IMG/VR virus record: IMGVR_UViG_2534682256_000015
From: a virus
Lineage: Duplodnaviria > Heunggongvirae > Uroviricota > Caudoviricetes
Length of the DNA: 4,553 nucleotides
Direction: 5' to 3' (one strand)
The notes under the pieces are model-generated. The model ran no database searches. It was not told the DNA's origin and saw only the letters and a program-made list of their open reading frames with translations. A program made the position numbers and the translations under genes. Positions 1-4,553 of the stretch are shown piece by piece. Position 1 is the first letter of the stretch; every line of letters starts with the position of its first letter.

Positions 1-57
1 CGGGGGAAAAACGTGTATTTTTAGTCATCCTGTTTACCTCTTTCTCAGGGAGTTTAG

Positions 58-82
58 TCTCCAGGATTCCCGGGGCGGTTCA
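58..82. repeat. Left copy of a 25-bp imperfect inverted repeat (tctccaggaTTCccggggcggttca); partner at 4473-4497 on the opposite strand
   Basis: Direct comparison of 58-82 with the reverse complement of 4473-4497: 9 identical bp, 3 adjacent mismatches (ttc vs aaa), 13 identical bp. Immediately preceded by an in-frame TAG (55-57) and immediately followed by the start of tfa homology. Confidence 0.8.
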
Positions 83-615
83 ATCTGCTGGCCGGAACTA
101 ATGAATTTATTGGTGAAGGTGACGCATACATTCCGCCTCATACAGGTCTGCCAGCAAACAGTACCGATATTGCACCGCCAGATATTCCGGCTGGCTTCGT
201 GGCTGTTTTCAACAGTAATGAGGCATCGTGGCATCTCGTTGAAGATCATCGGGGTAAAACGGTTTATGACGTGGCTTCCGGCGACGCGTTATTTATTTCT
301 GAACTCGGTCCGTTACCGGAAAATGTTACCTGGTTGTCGCCGGATGGAGAGTGTCAGAAGTGGAACGGCACATCCTGGGCGAAAGATGCAGAAGCAGAAA
401 AACTGTTTCGGGTACGGGAGGCAGAAGAAACAAAAAACAGCCTGATGCAGGTAGCCAGTGAGCATATTGCGCCACTTCAGGATGCCGTAGATTTGGATAT
501 TGCGACGGAGGAAGAGGCATCGTTACTGGCTGCATGGAAGACATATCGGGTATTGTTGAATCGTGTTGATACAACAGTAGCAGCGGATGTTGAGTGGCCA
601 GTCGCCCCACAATAA
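79..615 (+). CDS. tfa: Tail fiber assembly protein, lambda Tfa/TfaE type; 5' end atypical, no ATG/GTG/TTG in frame between the TAG at 55-57 and the GTG at 199
   Basis: Frame 1 is open from 58 to the TAA at 613-615. The translation [46 protein letters not shown]...[26 protein letters not shown] matches, from memory, the lambda/e14 Tfa family including the C-terminal EWPxxP end. The ORF-track start at 199 is an internal GTG; the usual N-terminus (about 15 residues) is missing. Confidence 0.8.
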
Positions 616-655
616 AAAGAAAAAGCCATCGACAGAAATATCGATGGCTTTATGT
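614..655. terminator. Bidirectional rho-independent terminator between convergent tfa and the acetyltransferase gene
   Basis: Perfect 11-bp stem AAAGCCATCGA (622-632) / TCGATGGCTTT (641-651) with an 8-nt loop. On the - strand the hairpin is followed by TTCTTTTT; on the + strand it is preceded by an A-run and follows the tfa stop directly. Confidence 0.65.
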
Positions 656-658
656 ACT

Positions 659-1231
659 CTATTTATACAATACAACACCACTCTTTTTAGTTATATATGT
701 GCAGTTTGATGGTATATCTTTATTTATAAAAGACATTGCACCTATTTTTACATTATCCCCAATTTTACGTGATAATCCAATGATGCAACAATTAGCTCCG
801 ATATCAACGTTACTACCAATTTTTACTCTTGAACTAGGCATATCACCATCTATCTGTCCAATGGTAGTATTCTGTCGTAATACCAGATTTTCACCCGCAT
901 CAACAGCAAAATGAACAACAATTCCAGCATGATGGGGAATTGTCAACCCTTTTCCAATATTTGCGCCCAATCCTATTTCACAACCAAACTTGTTAATTAT
1001 TTTACTGTTTAACTTTTTGGCTGCTTTCTTATGTAATTTATTACCATTAATATACATTTCGTTAGCCAACCGCCACCAGAAAAGGAAATTCCGGTTACGC
1101 TGCTTTTTCTCTCTTAAAAGCCTCCAGATATCCATACGTTTCCGCCGAATTACTTCATGTTTCCAGAAGTTTTTTAAATTAGTAGAGTTTCCAAATAAAA
1201 CAAAGTGAATTGCCATTAAGTAAGATAGCAC
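659..1231 (-). CDS. Hexapeptide-repeat (left-handed beta-helix) acetyltransferase, CysE/WcaB/EpsC serine-acetyltransferase-like; probable sugar/polysaccharide O-acetyltransferase
   Basis: Translation contains FLFWWRLANEMY...FGCEIGLGANIGKGLTIPHHAGIVVH followed by repeated [LIV]G-x4 hexapeptide units (KIGSNVDIGANCCIIG...KIGDNVKIGAMSF). Preferred start is the GTG at 1231-1229, preceded by AAGGAG (1243-1238) with a 6-nt spacer. Alternative in-frame starts are the GTG at 1264 (ORF-track start, no SD) and the ATG at 1216. Stop TAG at 659-661. Confidence 0.8.
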   Translation of the reverse strand: MLSYLMAIHFVLFGNSTNLKNFWKHEVIRRKRMDIWRLLREKKQRNRNFLFWWRLANEMYINGNKLHKKAAKKLNSKIINKFGCEIGLGANIGKGLTIPHHAGIVVHFAVDAGENLVLRQNTTIGQIDGDMPSSRVKIGSNVDIGANCCIIGLSRKIGDNVKIGAMSFINKDIPSNCTYITKKSGVVLYK

Positions 1232-1282
1232 GATAATCTCCTTAATTATTATTTCAGACCACACATGTTATAAGGTTAAGAG

Positions 1283-1311
1283 ATTATAAAATCCTGTTAT
1301 TTGTTATTCAA
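1283..1311 (-). promoter_or_regulatory. Sigma70-like promoter for the acetyltransferase gene: -35 TTGAAT, 17-bp spacer, -10 TATAAT
   Basis: The reverse complement of 1283-1311 reads TTGAAT-aacaaataacaggattt-TATAAT. It lies about 40-50 nt upstream of the SD/GTG at 1243-1229 in AT-rich DNA. Confidence 0.5.
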
Positions 1312-1344
1312 AAACAATTTTCTGAGAAGGACATACAACAGCAA

Positions 1345-1377
1345 GTCGCCAGTCACCTTCATCAGGAAATTGGCGAC
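1345..1377 (-). terminator. Possible weak terminator hairpin downstream of gpU (7-bp stem GTCGCCA/TGGCGAC, 19-nt loop)
   Basis: Inverted repeat 1345-1351 / 1371-1377 just after the gpU stop (1388-1390). The stem is short, the loop long and the T-tract poor. Confidence 0.25.
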
Positions 1378-1387
1378 ATACGTTAAA

Positions 1388-1882
1388 TCAGAGCAGCCCC
1401 TTAACTGAGCTGGCCGCGCTATTAAGGGATGATGTCACCTTATCTTTGAAGCCGGACAGCATATCGCTGAACGATGAGGATTGCAGGCGCTCCCGCAAAT
1501 CCTCATCACAGCGTTCAAGAGTCAGTGAAAATTCTATCTTTTTCGCCTTACCGTAGCGATCAAACTCGGAGCGGGTCGTATTCGTTCCGGTCAGGACATA
1601 CATGCCGTAAATCTGCCCGACGCCATCAATCAAAGGCCAAGGACGTCCTGTATATGCCTGCGTGGTCAACAACGACAGCGACACTTCGCCACCAGTAATC
1701 TCAGGATAAAGAACACCAGAAAGAACGATGCGATCATCACCTGCACCGATATACTGCCAGCTTGCTGAACGGTTAACGCGTTCATTTTTCACATGTCGCC
1801 AGCTTTTGTTTTGCTGTAACTGCTGATGCGGCAACGTGCGCAGCTCAAAAACAAACATGCCGTAGATCATCATCATGGCCAT
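1388..1882 (-). CDS. Phage tail protein, P2 GpU family
   Basis: 164-aa ORF with ATG at 1882 and TGA at 1388-1390. The pattern FVFELRTLPHQ...SWRH...RVNRS...LSGVLYPEITGG...WPLIDGVGQIYGMYVL...KIEFSLTLER matches my recollection of the GpU family. GAGGAG lies just upstream (1888-1893), overlapping the stop of the preceding ORF. Confidence 0.7.
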   Translation of the reverse strand: MAMMMIYGMFVFELRTLPHQQLQQNKSWRHVKNERVNRSASWQYIGAGDDRIVLSGVLYPEITGGEVSLSLLTTQAYTGRPWPLIDGVGQIYGMYVLTGTNTTRSEFDRYGKAKKIEFSLTLERCDEDLRERLQSSSFSDMLSGFKDKVTSSLNSAASSVKGLL

Positions 1883-1888
1883 GACTCC

Positions 1889-2725
1889 TCAATCTTTATC
1901 GTAAAAACTGCCACGCCTGGCACGGGCGCGCCGTTCCATTTCTGCCCTGACCATTTCGCCGACCAGTTTCGCCAGTTCGCGGGGATTCTGCGTAACAACG
2001 TTATGCAGATGAACATGAATTTCACCGCCAAATCCGGAGGCAACAGGCTCCCGGTTACGGGAAGTTGCAGGAACTGATGCCACTGGCGATCGTATGGCCT
2101 CCACCACCGGGCGGGAGCTGGCCGCAACAACAGGGACCAGCGCCGGAGGCAGCGGAGCCGGGACCACGGGTGTGATATTAATTGCGGGGGCAGGCTTACT
2201 GACCTGCGCAATCTTCCGCTCCTGCCACTCCCCACGAACAGCAAGTGCGCGGGGCAGGTTCTTAAAGACAATATCGCCGGGGCCAATGCGTTTTTTTGTC
2301 TCATCAACCAGCTTACCTGTGTTATCAGCAATTTTGCTGAGTCTGCGTAGCGTGCCGGTATTGCTGTCTGTGAGAGGTTTGTTGTCTTTGGGTTTATCAT
2401 CTCCGGTGCCATTGCTATTTCCCGCAGACTTCGGCGGATTGATTTTCGCAATGTCTCCCTGAAACAGAGCAACCTTGTCCTGAAGAATGGCCGCACGTTG
2501 TGCGTCTTCGATTTTCTTGCGCGCCCTTTCCGCTTCATCCGGAAGCACACCGAGTTTTTCAAGTATCCACGCCAGCGTATCCAGCAACATTTTTGCAGGC
2601 GTCAGAACAAGCTGTAACGCACCACCAAGAACGTTACCGAATACCTCGCCAGCACTGGTACATTTATCCAGCGTTTCCTTGCTGGACTCCATCGGTGACA
2701 GCAGCGATTTAAACCAGTTAAACAC
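1889..2725 (-). CDS. Tape measure protein, C-terminal segment (278 codons from the GTG at 2725); probably the continuation of the 2602-4443 ORF after a frameshift
   Basis: Open frame from the TGA at 2756-2758 to the stop at 1889-1891. It overlaps the 3' end of the upstream TMP ORF by 124 nt in a different frame. Contains a Pro/Ala-rich linker (PAPAINITPVVPAPLPPALVPVV). Its stop overlaps the gpU SD, which suggests translational coupling. Confidence 0.6.
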   Translation of the reverse strand: MFNWFKSLLSPMESSKETLDKCTSAGEVFGNVLGGALQLVLTPAKMLLDTLAWILEKLGVLPDEAERARKKIEDAQRAAILQDKVALFQGDIAKINPPKSAGNSNGTGDDKPKDNKPLTDSNTGTLRRLSKIADNTGKLVDETKKRIGPGDIVFKNLPRALAVRGEWQERKIAQVSKPAPAINITPVVPAPLPPALVPVVAASSRPVVEAIRSPVASVPATSRNREPVASGFGGEIHVHLHNVVTQNPRELAKLVGEMVRAEMERRARARRGSFYDKD

Positions 2726-4443
2726 CTGGCTGAACCGCTTCCGATTACGTCAAAAACAGGGCCAAACCGTTCAAAGGTGTCGCGCAACGGGGTCAGCCTT
2801 TCCATAATCCCGCTGAACACCCCGGCAAAGAAAGCCCTGATAGGATCCCAGTATTTCCAGATAAGAACGGCAGCTCCGGCAAGCGCAGCCACGATAAGAC
2901 CAACCGGACTGAACAACGCCCCGATAACGCCTCCCAGTAAAGAAACGGAACCCGTCACCATTCCCCATAGCGCAGGTAACACCCTGACGACATTCATTGA
3001 CCGGGTAAGAATGTCAAAACCAAGACGCAGGGTGGCCAGCTTCCCGTAAAGCACCCCAATAACCAGCGACAACGAGCCAATCGTTGCAGTCATTGCCAGC
3101 AACGCACCGCCTGCTATCAGTAGCTGGCGCGTCAGTACCGGATGGGCCTGCGCCAGCGAGGTGATTTTTTCAAGCACCCGCGTGAGCCACTGCGTGACAG
3201 AACGCAGCGGACCGTCAACCAGATCACTGATGCGAATACGAAGACCTTCCCATGCGCTGTCGAGATTTTTCAGGTCCCCATCAAGATTATCAGCCATTAC
3301 TTTTGCGACGCGATCGGCCTCTCCCCTTGCCCCCTGCAATTCTCTGGTCAGTTTTTGCAGCTCTCCTGAACCAGCCGCCGCAACAAGCGTCTGCAAACCA
3401 ACGAACGCCTCTTCTCCGGCGATGTCCTTGAAGAAGGAGACCTGGTCCACCTGTCCGTATTTTTGTGTCGCCTTATAGAGATCAAGCAGCACATCCTCCA
3501 TCGGGCGCATTTTGCCTCTGGCGTCAGCAACTGACACCCCCAGCTCTTTCAGTGCATCAGCCGCAGCTTTTGGCGGTGATGCAAGGCGGGACAGACTTGC
3601 GCGCATGGCCGTGCCAGCATCGCTTCCGCGAAGACCATTATTGGCAAGCATCCCGGCCATGGCCGCCGCTTCTTCAAGACTGATACCAAGTTTTGCGGCA
3701 ACCGGACCGGTATACTTCATGGTTTCGCCCAGCGCGCGTAAATCAGTATTGGTCCGGGTAAATGCTGCTGTCAGCGTATCGCCCACCCGGTCCATTTGAT
3801 CGGCTGTCAGGTTGAACTGTGTGAGGATATTGGAGCCTATATCAGCCGTCTCGCCGAGTTCGACGCCACCTGCCAGCGCCATATTAAGAACACCGGGCAA
3901 TGCGGCCTGAATGGCCTGCGGAGTAAAACCAGCCATTGCCAGAAAGCTCTGCCCACTGGCGGCATCACTCGCAGTAAACTGTGTTTCAGCAAGTTTTAAC
4001 GCCTGCTCACGCAGCGCCTTAAACTGCGGGCTGTTTTTGTCGATTCGCGTCAGTGCCTGAACGCGGGACATCTCTTTGCCGAACCCGATCGCAGGCTGCA
4101 AAAAACGCCCGGCAGCATAGCCGCCCGCCGCTGCCGCACCAATTGCCAGCGCACCACCTGTTTTCAGTTTTCCCGCGGTTTCCTGCGCGTGCGAATACCG
4201 CTCACGCGCCTGCGTTACACGCGCAAGCGCCTGCCGTTCGCGTTCAAGCTGGTTGTTGTATTGTTCGGTGCGTCTGATGGCCTGCTGAATGGTGTTATCG
4301 CTGCCTGTCAGGGAAATGCCGTGGCGTTTCAGCTCTCCGCCAAGTTCCCTCATTTTCTGAATTTCCCGTGTGCGCGATTCATTCAGGCGTTCAAGCCGGG
4401 TGCTTAACTGCTGCATCAGCTTTTGTTGTTTTTCGCTGAGCAC
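2602..4443 (-). CDS. Phage tail tape measure protein, N-terminal and central part (613 codons, GTG start)
   Basis: Long Ala/Gly/Leu-rich ORF with a coiled-coil-like N-terminus (EKQQKLMQQLSTRLERLNESRTREIQKMRELGGELKR), a central region typical of tape measure proteins, and hydrophobic segments near the end (LLIAGGALLAMTATIGSLSLVIGVLYG...). The last ~35 codons before the stop at 2602 are Cys/Trp/Arg-rich and look out of frame, while the overlapping frame reads as normal protein. Confidence 0.8.
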   Translation of the reverse strand: MLSEKQQKLMQQLSTRLERLNESRTREIQKMRELGGELKRHGISLTGSDNTIQQAIRRTEQYNNQLERERQALARVTQARERYSHAQETAGKLKTGGALAIGAAAAGGYAAGRFLQPAIGFGKEMSRVQALTRIDKNSPQFKALREQALKLAETQFTASDAASGQSFLAMAGFTPQAIQAALPGVLNMALAGGVELGETADIGSNILTQFNLTADQMDRVGDTLTAAFTRTNTDLRALGETMKYTGPVAAKLGISLEEAAAMAGMLANNGLRGSDAGTAMRASLSRLASPPKAAADALKELGVSVADARGKMRPMEDVLLDLYKATQKYGQVDQVSFFKDIAGEEAFVGLQTLVAAAGSGELQKLTRELQGARGEADRVAKVMADNLDGDLKNLDSAWEGLRIRISDLVDGPLRSVTQWLTRVLEKITSLAQAHPVLTRQLLIAGGALLAMTATIGSLSLVIGVLYGKLATLRLGFDILTRSMNVVRVLPALWGMVTGSVSLLGGVIGALFSPVGLIVAALAGAAVLIWKYWDPIRAFFAGVFSGIMERLTPLRDTFERFGPVFDVIGSGSARCLTGLNRCCHRWSPARKRWINVPVLARYSVTFLVVRYSLF

Positions 4444-4465
4444 TGTACCCGTGCGTTGTAACTGA

Positions 4466-4553
4466 TTAAGGGTGAACCGCCCCGGTTTTCCTGGAGAGTG
4501 TTTTATCTGTGAACTCAGGCTGCCAGATCATCGTTTCCGATGGAAGCATAATA
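4466..4553 (-). CDS. 3' end of an upstream ORF that runs off the window (...MIWQPEFTDKTLSRKTGAVHP*); possibly the frameshift-extended tail assembly chaperone (P2 E+E' / lambda G-T analogue)
   Basis: This frame is open from the window edge to the TAA at 4466-4468, 23 nt upstream of the TMP GTG. A second frame, the -1 partner, terminates earlier at the TGA 4528-4530. The gene is partial and only 29 codons are visible. Confidence 0.3.
   Translation of the reverse strand, partial: IMLPSETMIWQPEFTDKTLSRKTGAVHP
4473..4497. repeat. Right copy of the 25-bp imperfect inverted repeat (reads tctccaggaAAAccggggcggttca on the - strand)
   Basis: See feature 58-82. It lies 30 nt upstream of the TMP GTG start and contains a short internal dyad AACCG-GGG-CGGTT that the left copy lacks. 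Confidence 0.8.

Follow-up and report, generated by a model that had tools for sequence, protein, structure and literature searches.

The 4,553-nucleotide stretch of viral DNA analyzed here (the window) is very probably a piece of an E. coli O157:H7 prophage, taken to be Sp13/CP-933T, that belongs to the P88-like phages of the P2 family (Peduoviridae). Two direct copies of IS629 enclose the piece, and in this reading the absence of gene D behind gene U is native and the defects of the element have separate origins. The arrangement found after gpU is the normal order in a large P88-like branch of P2-like phages, and the layout is therefore ordinary and gives no sign of rearrangement. Indeed, the locus itself belongs to a well-known defective O157 prophage and holds nothing new; what the analysis offers is mainly corrective, together with one lead of modest interest, an intact acetyltransferase moron of putative function in the variable slot behind gpU.

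Content of the window and identity of the prophage

The features of the window are collected in Table 1. An earlier note, made from the sequence alone, had described gpU as the last tail gene with no gpD in the window, followed by a hairpin, an AT-rich moron and a convergent tfa, and had recognized a frameshifted tape measure gene and a tfa lacking its native start, and this description holds throughout. The gpU protein covers profile positions 1–120 of 120 in Phage_P2_GpU (131.5 bits, cut-off 27.5), falls in the tail protein family phrog_76, and has 100% identical copies across many IMG/VR prophage contigs, and a tblastn search of the window with P2 gpD and P88 gpD returned no gpD homologue. 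The tape measure gene is split into overlapping minus-strand ORFs (1889–2725 and 2602–4443), and when its indels are placed against the intact 2808-nt gene of an O104:H4 prophage, the frameshift proves to be a 1-nt deletion at 2733/2734, at about codon 655 of 935, accompanied by an in-frame 3-nt deletion near 3989 and by the loss of the 5' end to IS629 at nt 221 (codon 74). This frameshift is present in every O157 copy examined, and the EDL933 gene is labeled "frameshifted" in RefSeq. The GC content is 55.4% in the tape measure gene, 49.9% in gpU and 34.0% in the acetyltransferase gene.

Table 1. Features of the 4,553-nucleotide window
Feature	Position	Strand	Basis or remark
IS629/IS1203 (IS3 family) terminal segment	1–81	-	Abuts truncated tfa
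tfa', 5'-truncated tail fibre assembly chaperone gene	85–615	+	Caudo_TAP PF02413, E=2.6e-40
Hairpin, 13-bp stem, between convergent tfa and acetyltransferase genes	622–651		Terminator scan
AT-rich moron, 190-aa hexapeptide-repeat (CysE/EpsC/WcaB-like) acetyltransferase, ORF intact	659–1231	-	ORF list, profile searches
Candidate sigma-70-like promoter upstream of acetyltransferase gene	1283–1311	-	TTGAAT-17-TATAAT, 10/12 consensus
Imperfect hairpin, core GUCGCCA...UGGCGAC, directly past gpU stop	1341–1381	-	RNA fold
gpU, intact, last gene of FI-FII-E-E'-T-U tail operon	1388–1882	-	PF06995, E=1.5e-38
Tape measure pseudogene	1889–4472	-	PhageMin_Tail, E=6e-55
Second IS629/IS1203 copy, opposite terminal segment	4473–4553	-	Oriented as first copy; interrupts tape measure gene

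The truncated tfa scores 138 bits against Caudo_TAP (cut-off 22.1) and matches phrog_105, tail fiber assembly, at E=4.3e-87. In a global alignment with the 192-aa Tfa of the O104:H4 prophage it begins at residue 17, and IS629, at 81/82, has cost the gene its first 16 codons and its ribosome-binding site; from the IS boundary onward the reading frame is open, with its first internal start a GTG at 199. The earlier note had called this gene lambda-type. It is not foreign to phages of the P2 type, as P2 gpG aligns to the window tfa and belongs to the same Caudo_TAP family, which includes lambda Tfa.

The IS629/IS1203 nature of both window ends had gone unnoticed in the earlier note. Positions 1–81 match the ends of IS1203/IS3-family copies in O157:H7 strain 4276 (L003) at 100% and an IS copy in O111:H8 at 97.6%, and the EDL933 annotation at the counterpart is a partial IS3-family transposase; positions 4473–4553 are a 98.8% match to the opposite end of the IS1203 copies of L003 and L008. 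Intact prophages are homologous to the window from position 82 onward, the segment between the IS629 ends measures 4.39 kb, and these ends take 16 codons from tfa and 73 from the tape measure gene. The junction between the tape measure gene and IS629 (4380–4553 searched) is absent from all 5,426 complete E. coli genomes, and the seeming 100% coverage of the window in the seven top genome matches consists of two non-collinear pieces.

Positions 1–4472 are 100% identical to EDL933, where the copy sits in a prophage flanked by yecA and tRNA-Leu that we take to be CP-933T, the P2-like prophage of that strain. It runs from integrase, regulators, replication endonuclease and ParM through a partial IS3-family element, tfa, the acetyltransferase gene, U, frameshifted T, E', E, tube and sheath to a D stub cut by IS30. 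We infer that the window derives from Sp13/CP-933T from this identity and from the standing of Sp13 as the single P2-like prophage of O157 Sakai, an element without most morphogenetic genes (PMC2669165) that was called defective already in 2009. A search for literature linking CP-933T with P2-like phages found no paper.

Gene order in intact relatives and in surveys

Against P2 order the window departs in two ways, in that no D lies behind U and in that tfa (plus strand) and T-U (minus strand) converge rather than being codirectional with a V-W-J-I-H-G operon. Both departures recur in intact relatives. Window positions 82–4472 are collinear with complete prophages of O104:H4 (96.5% identity) and O111:H8 (91.8%), which have V-W-J-I, fibre and tfa on the plus strand, then the acetyltransferase gene, U, an intact T, E', E, FII and FI on the minus strand, and finally D on the plus strand and ogr. 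In both, D is full length and on the strand opposite to FI (tblastn, P2 D residues 15–383, 48% identity), and the junction of U, hairpin, acetyltransferase and tfa is without IS elements. The T-U segment (1382–4472) is also 95.9% identical to phage 500465-2, 90.8% to P88 and 89.8% to Citrobacter phage Shae_phiSM, and the homology of the window to P88 and 500465-2 ends at 1382, 6 nt past the gpU stop. A layout with gpU last, facing the 3' end of a tail-fibre/tfa module across a variable slot, is common to the window, P88, 500465-2 and the O104:H4 and O111:H8 prophages. Such phages are viable, as P88 is mitomycin-inducible and plaque-forming (PMC5285337) and its relative PhiSM is a functional temperate phage (PMC6456863).

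In a survey of 80 IMG/VR loci with GpU at least 99% identical, which are near-identical and non-independent E. coli prophages, D follows U in none and lies on the opposite strand in 57, usually some 6.8 kb upstream of where gpU ends, and gpU is last and faces a fibre/tfa module across a slot in all 80. The slot holds an acetyltransferase in 32 loci and an invertase in 35, and in seven more a tfa lies about 1.4 kb downstream; in L024, the single one of these seven examined, the intervening ORF encodes a GT9 glycosyltransferase. A second survey covered different bacterial species, with the best 80 of 240 loci retained, and divides along GpU identity: at 52% identity or more, D points away from FI in every one of the 38 classifiable loci, from other Enterobacterales species, and at 50% or less the order is that of P2, U directly followed by D (again 38 of 38 classifiable loci). 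Many of the 38 P88-type loci have a convergent tfa no more than 250 nt from gpU, and this branch is seen in E. coli, Salmonella, Serratia, Enterobacter, Pantoea, Edwardsiella, Morganella, Providencia, Photorhabdus, Xenorhabdus, Pectobacterium and Hafnia. On gene order, inversions, gpU, tail fibres or an acetyltransferase, nothing relevant came to light in three papers on P2-like diversity and hotspots (PMC13100340, PMC13586616 and PMC9122126).

The earlier note had read the missing D and the convergent tfa as a mosaic rearrangement, and this reading is contradicted by the intact relatives, by P88 and 500465-2 and by every classifiable locus with GpU at least 52% identical. A family in which a convergent tfa naturally lies behind the tape measure gene and gpU and D has its place elsewhere, which that note had named as something that would overturn its view, does exist. 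For infectious particles from the window's own prophage, which it had named alongside, no evidence emerged.

On the evidence of gene order, the block from FI to U is in effect inverted relative to P2 in the whole clade. In the P88-like lineage, this block comprises FI, FII, E, E', T and U, and the tail operon therefore ends at gpU, where it meets the end of the operon for baseplate and tail fibre (H, tfa) head-on. The gpD gene stands apart on the opposite strand, pointing away from the sheath gene and with ogr behind it. With the block inverted and D separate, the absence of D after U is very probably a native feature. The gap between the two converging operon ends is a variable cargo slot, which, depending on the relative, is occupied by a DNA invertase with an invertible fibre segment, by nothing, by a GT9 glycosyltransferase or by the AT-rich hexapeptide acetyltransferase. 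A promoter for D would be expected in the 157-bp FI-D spacer, which is nearly identical among five relatives and in which an exact Ogr-type site (TGT-N12-ACA) is absent from both strands, and transcription would be expected to terminate after gpU.

Alternative explanations and decay of the O157 prophage

One alternative is that the order T-U-D was once present and that a mosaic arose by a rearrangement in which D was removed or displaced and a foreign moron came in along with a lambda-type tfa. This is suggested by P2 itself, where D lies directly behind U, by the roughly 91% DNA identity of tfa to lambdoid phage tfa genes, by the foreign base composition of the acetyltransferase region and by the IS elements at both window ends, but the same junction is IS-free in the complete O104:H4 and O111:H8 prophages, which are integrated at another site (ihfA-pheT, versus yecA for the O157 prophage), and recurs in 32 IMG/VR contigs. 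Moreover, D is divergent from FI in every classifiable relative with GpU at least 52% identical, and the EDL933 D stub lies at the exact place typical of the clade, making a removal or displacement of D very improbable. It is even less probable that, within O157, IS629 recombination with another resident prophage, lambdoid or P1-like, brought the tfa-acetyltransferase block next to gpU. IS629 does adjoin tfa at position 82, the cassette (82–1157/1230) is 91–93% identical to the P1-like phages vB_EcoM-Ro157c2YLVW and JL22, and many lambdoid prophages with similar tfa genes reside in O157; yet the IS boundary lies at the 5' end of tfa and not at the junction of acetyltransferase and U, and 82–4472 is collinear throughout with IS-free intact prophages of other serotypes, on which ground an IS629-mediated chimera was rejected. 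Tail-fibre modules are exchanged horizontally among P1, P2, Mu and lambda-type phages, and such exchange better explains the sharing of the cassette.

On the native P88-like reading, the defects of the O157 prophage have causes of their own. The head, packaging, lysis, baseplate and tail-fibre genes of the EDL933 prophage are all gone, and the prophages of strains 4276 and 7784 have likewise lost portal, terminase, capsid, lysis, baseplate and fibre genes. D is a 90-codon stub cut by IS30 in EDL933, IS629 stands in its place in strain 4276, and in strain 7784 an IS629 copy sits within it. An IS629-associated deletion very probably removed the capsid, lysis, baseplate and fibre genes together with the 5' end of tfa, a 1-nt deletion broke the tape measure gene, an IS629 insertion or adjacent deletion struck the 5' end of the latter, and D was destroyed by IS30 or IS629 in the sequenced O157 strains. 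The window variant is probably further decayed than the EDL933 copy, given the extra IS629 end within its tape measure gene. The earlier note's verdict of a defective prophage remnant thus stands on the EDL933 gene losses, the D stub and the damage to the tape measure gene and tfa, and fails as a deduction from gene order. The leftover sheath, tube, tape measure and U genes might instead be regarded as a domesticated contractile-tail, tailocin-like module in which D is not needed at this position, given that EDL933 retains intact ORFs for sheath, tube, E, E' and U and that Sp13 excises and replicates after mitomycin C, its DNA being amplified and its genes transcribed (PMC2669165). To this we attach the least credence of all the explanations, hardly any, as the element is without baseplate, spike, fibre or lysis genes, every O157 copy examined has the tape measure frameshift, to which the window adds a further truncation, its strain having an IS629 copy within the gene, and D is a stub or absent; on these grounds a functional tailocin was rejected.

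The acetyltransferase moron and the slot behind gpU

The acetyltransferase ORF has an alternative upstream start, a GTG at 1264, that would give 201 aa. Its match to Pfam Hexapep (E=2.7e-5) lies under the gathering score, its NCBIfam E-values are 2.3e-21 for EpsC, 4.8e-17 for CysE and 3.5e-15 for WcaB, it matches serine acetyltransferases in the PDB at E=1.5e-12, and it belongs to phrog_2154 (E=2.9e-87), a family listed in PHROGs as of unknown function. All three equivalog cut-offs are missed (EpsC, 76.2 of 150 bits; CysE, 62.4 of 210.65; WcaB, 55.8 of 196), and the RefSeq name "serine O-acetyltransferase" is uninformative on substrate. As judged from these profile matches, the protein is of the left-handed beta-helix acetyltransferase fold class and no CysE, EpsC or WcaB equivalog. 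No family among the PADLOC-DB anti-phage defence models matched it at E<=0.01.

The hairpin at 622–651 is terminator-like on the minus strand (651->622), with 13 pairs, a loop of 4, the tail TTCTTTTTAT and a T-run after the stem. On the other side of the gene, the minus-strand RNA of 1265–1400 folds with an MFE of -31.8 kcal/mol (z=-2.59); the hairpin directly past gpU was not called as a canonical terminator by the terminator scan, and the homology breakpoint at 1381/1382 leaves it with the cassette. Promoter-like matches in the region are no commoner than in shuffled sequence. The moron would carry a sigma-70-like promoter of its own as well as a strong terminator hairpin, and these predicted signals suggest that the prophage probably expresses the acetyltransferase as a gene of lysogenic conversion. 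The gene is still intact in the otherwise decayed O157 prophage, and together with its tfa it is shared between P2-like and P1-like phages. A further proposal, which taken as a whole we consider speculative and rather unlikely, is that the P88-like slot between gpU and the end of the fibre operon is a dedicated cargo slot favouring conversion genes that modify the cell envelope, with the CysE/WcaB-like acetyltransferase here and a GT9 heptosyltransferase-like enzyme in at least one other relative, and that the acetyltransferase could acetylate a surface polysaccharide that serves as the receptor of the linked fibre, leading to superinfection exclusion, a benefit for which the host would have kept it.

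Comparison with known systems

Use of P2 as the sole synteny template misclassifies a large and widespread branch of the P2 family, and calls of prophage completeness in the P88-like clade should look for D beside the sheath gene. In P2 (Peduovirus P2), the FI, FII, E, E', T, U, D and ogr genes are codirectional with the fibre operon (H, G), and U (22312–22791) and D (22791–23954) directly adjoin. Its homologues are 45% (FI), about 33% (T), 46% (U) and 48–50% (D) identical, gpG represents the same tfa family, and P2 likewise has a non-essential moron, fun/Z, past its fibre operon. P88 (Xuanwuvirus) and 500465-2 (Gemsvirus), both Peduoviridae, share with the clade of the window the inverted FI-to-U block, the convergent fibre module and the D that is divergent from FI, but their slot holds a DNA invertase and an invertible fibre/tfa segment, while that of the window holds the acetyltransferase.

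The prophages of O104:H4 2011C-3493 and O111:H8 7-15 45A differ from the window in having the full gene set, a 935-aa tape measure protein, the complete 192-aa Tfa and a full-length D. In the P1-like phages Ro157c2YLVW and JL22 (Punavirus), the same cassette of tfa and convergent acetyltransferase lies directly 3' of the tail-fibre gene, though in an unrelated backbone and with a U' chaperone fragment and lysis genes, rather than gpU, coming next. Finally, the window and the Sp13/EDL933 prophage agree in their truncated tfa, their acetyltransferase, their gpU and their frameshifted tape measure gene, and are set apart by the additional IS629 end of the window at 4472/4473 inside the tape measure gene.

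Genes of the window and their IS629 boundaries

The earlier note held that gpU ends the tail operon and that no gpD lies beyond it, and this is borne out at its coordinates by ORFs, Pfam matches and tblastn, with neither P2 gpD nor P88 gpD as query finding a match in the window. GC content is 34.0% in the acetyltransferase gene, 32.7% in the spacer before gpU, 49.9% in both tfa and gpU, and 55.4% in the tape measure gene.

Features of the window, with coordinates as window positions
Feature	Position	Strand	Basis
tfa, Caudo_TAP tail-fibre assembly gene	frame open 85-615	+	Pfam E=2.6e-40
13-bp-stem hairpin with T-run, between the convergent tfa and acetyltransferase genes	651 to 622	-	
Hexapeptide acetyltransferase ORF	659-1231; alternative GTG start 1264	-	ORF listing, Pfam scan
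Candidate promoter TTGAAT-17-TATAAT, upstream of the acetyltransferase gene	1311 to 1283	-	consensus match
Imperfect hairpin, immediately past the gpU stop	1341-1381		
gpU	1388-1882	-	PF06995 E=1.5e-38
Tape measure gene, two overlapping ORFs	1889-2725 and 2602-4443	-	PhageMin_Tail E=6e-55

Both ends of the window carry IS629/IS1203 termini, which the earlier note overlooked. Positions 1-81 and 4473-4553 are opposite termini in direct orientation, 97.6-100% identical to IS copies of other strains, so the phage DNA amounts to 4,391 bp (82-4472) enclosed by two IS copies in the same orientation, and the window has the appearance of an entire short-read contig with an IS copy at either end. The left IS has cost the 192-aa Tfa its first 16 codons, and the right IS interrupts the tape measure gene at its nt 221 (codon 74), a junction that is absent from all complete RefSeq E. 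coli genomes. In strain 7784, an IS629 copy lies in the D region and turns the same end towards the sheath gene; a deletion starting next to a copy of this kind would yield the right junction of the window. Compared with the intact gene of the O104:H4 2011C-3493 prophage, the tape measure gene lacks one nucleotide at 2733/2734, which shifts the frame near codon 655 of 935, and, independently of this, three nucleotides at about 3989, which leaves the frame intact. Since E. coli O157:H7 EDL933 matches window 1-4472 with 100% identity, these deletions are not sequencing errors of the window.

The position of D in P2 and in the relatives of the window

In P2, FI (sheath), FII (tube), E, E', T (tape measure), U, D (baseplate hub) and ogr share a strand with V-W-J-I-H-G, and D starts at the end of U. 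The nearest phage relatives over T-U, 500465-2 (95.9%) and P88 (90.8%), have a mutually identical order that is unlike that of P2: fibre and tfa lie on the plus strand, followed by an inverted fibre'/tfa' segment and a DNA invertase gene, while U, T, E', E, FII and FI converge on them from the minus strand, and D then lies on the plus strand, divergent from FI. The complete prophages of O104:H4 2011C-3493 and O111:H8 have the slot between gpU and the convergent fibre operon in precisely the form seen in the window, with fibre and tfa (192 aa) followed by the acetyltransferase gene, U and an intact 2,808-nt T. Window 82-4472 is collinear with them at 96.5% and 91.8% identity, respectively, and against O104:H4 there are only four gapped positions, all in the tape measure gene. 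In all four intact relatives, tblastn places a full-length D on the strand opposite FI, followed by an ogr homologue, and these D proteins are 48-50% identical to P2 D over residues 15-384.

In the O104:H4 and O111:H8 prophages, the RefSeq annotation of D is limited to an 801-nt 'VgrG/Pvc8 family' CDS, accompanied by a small antisense pseudogene. Because a single unbroken tblastn alignment in the O104:H4 prophage (L007 25890-27125) covers all 412-413 residues of 500465-2 D, the short annotation probably reflects start-site choice rather than truncation. The intact relatives also have a second variable slot, between D and ogr (L007 27223-29630; O111:H8 prophage, L008 27367-28869), which holds a DUF3800 protein gene and ISKpn26 in O104:H4, a PIN-domain protein gene in O111:H8 and nothing in P88.

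D follows U in none of 80 IMG/VR contigs whose GpU is at least 99% identical to that of the window; it lies on the opposite strand in 57, with full-length copies about 6.8 kb upstream of the gpU end, and the rest are mostly too short to reveal it. In a second survey, with one genome per species and the best 80 of 240 loci, D is divergent from FI in 38/38 classifiable loci with GpU at least 52% identical, and P2-like U-D adjacency is found in 38/38 classifiable loci with GpU at most 50% identical. The divergent-D loci come from Salmonella, Serratia, Enterobacter, Kosakonia, Pantoea, Symbiopectobacterium, Edwardsiella, Morganella, Providencia, Photorhabdus, Xenorhabdus, Pectobacterium, Hafnia and Citrobacter. 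Both surveys thus make the arrangement a clade character, in which the FI-to-U block is inverted relative to P2 and D and ogr are left in place. The inverted architecture is viable; P88 is mitomycin-inducible and plaque-forming (PMC5285337), and PhiSM, which shares 76.8% identity with P88, has been described as temperate and fully functional (PMC6456863).

Two observations on members of this group deserve mention. PhiSM particles are described as siphovirus-like with non-contractile tails (PMC6456863), and this morphology seems inconsistent with a genome that has sheath and tube homologues and such identity to a P2-like myophage. A 226-kb contig of an assembly labelled Vagococcus sp., a Gram-positive genus, carries a P88-type prophage (L090, NZ_JBQPOM010000071.1) with a GpU 96% identical to that of E. 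coli, and is probably contamination or a mislabelled assembly.

A defective O157:H7 prophage

At least 80% of the window is covered in 495 genomes. In EDL933 the segment lies inside a prophage between yecA and tRNA-Leu. Its genes are, in order, those for an integrase, regulators, a 'derepression protein', a replication endonuclease, ParM and a partition protein; next come part of an IS3-family element, tfa, the acetyltransferase gene, U, T (flagged as frameshifted), E', E, tube and sheath; beyond these, the opposite strand has a 'late control D' pseudogene of 267 nt, with IS30 after it. Genes for portal, terminase, capsid, lysis, baseplate and fibre have all gone from it. The first 90 codons of D stand at the exact position of D in the relatives, with a 27-codon fragment beyond IS30, and in O157:H7 strain 4276 D is lost. 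Sp13 is the sole P2-like prophage of O157 Sakai, and its published description, as devoid of most morphogenetic genes, fits the EDL933 element (PMC2669165); from this match and the EDL933 identity we infer that the window is Sp13/CP-933T. After mitomycin C, Sp13 excises and replicates but is poorly packaged (PMC2669165). Beside the replication gene, the O157 prophage has the 'derepression protein' gene (EDL933 locus L001, 14141-14371) and the ParM/partition pair (17715-18993); P88 and the O104:H4 prophage likewise have this pair. Separately, a proposal of 2009 attributes the unusual mitomycin-C induction of Sp13 to a P4 epsilon-like gene that it carries (PMC2669165).

The earlier note read the missing D and the convergent tfa as marks of a rearranged and probably defective remnant, of which the defect stands and the rearrangement does not. 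With its tape measure gene frameshifted, baseplate and fibre genes missing and D destroyed, the O157 copy cannot build a tail. Judged by gene order, the lack of D after U is not a rearrangement; it and the convergent tfa are native to the P88-like branch of Peduoviridae and carry no information on decay. The element and its gene order are already known from public annotated records and the literature, and the sole lead is the putative acetyltransferase moron together with the cargo slot that holds it.

The acetyltransferase gene and its slot

Gene order, operon polarity, the intact U and acetyltransferase ORFs and the defects are established, and the FI-D spacer is 157 bp and nearly identical in five relatives. 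Late transcription may start in this conserved spacer. One arm would run from FI to U and stop at the weak hairpin, with the strong hairpin on the far side of the acetyltransferase gene as a fallback; the other arm would comprise D and ogr. The acetyltransferase gene would be expressed in the lysogen from its own promoter, as a conversion gene. Its matches to EpsC, CysE and WcaB all fall far below the family cut-offs, and a comparison with the defence-system families of PADLOC-DB (E<=0.01) gives no hit.

Homology to the invertase-type phages ends at 1381/1382, 6 nt past the gpU stop. Among the 80 IMG/VR loci, the slot holds an invertase gene in 35 and the acetyltransferase gene in 32, with a convergent tfa detected beyond the latter in all but one. 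In seven more, tfa lies about 1.4 kb downstream of gpU, and the one examined (L024) has between them a 412-aa ORF (10592-11830) with a GT9 heptosyltransferase-family match, by this homology a putative second envelope-modifying cargo type at the same site. The remaining six have none of the queried genes in the slot; fibre genes come directly next in four examined, and L038 has an acetyltransferase remnant and IS1.

The tfa had been called lambda-type, which is not specifically so: its C-terminus aligns with P2 gpG at 47% identity, and in the intact O104:H4 prophage it lies behind a fibre with 71% N-terminal identity to P2 H. Phages of the P1, P2, Mu and lambda types exchange fibre modules horizontally. 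At the DNA level, the tfa-acetyltransferase cassette (82-1157/1230) shares 91-93% identity with the P1-like phages vB_EcoM-Ro157c2YLVW and JL22, where it is likewise convergent and directly behind the tail-fibre gene (L005 8001-9150), so the acetyltransferase gene appears to move between unrelated phage backbones together with the fibre/chaperone module, a sharing that fits such exchange.
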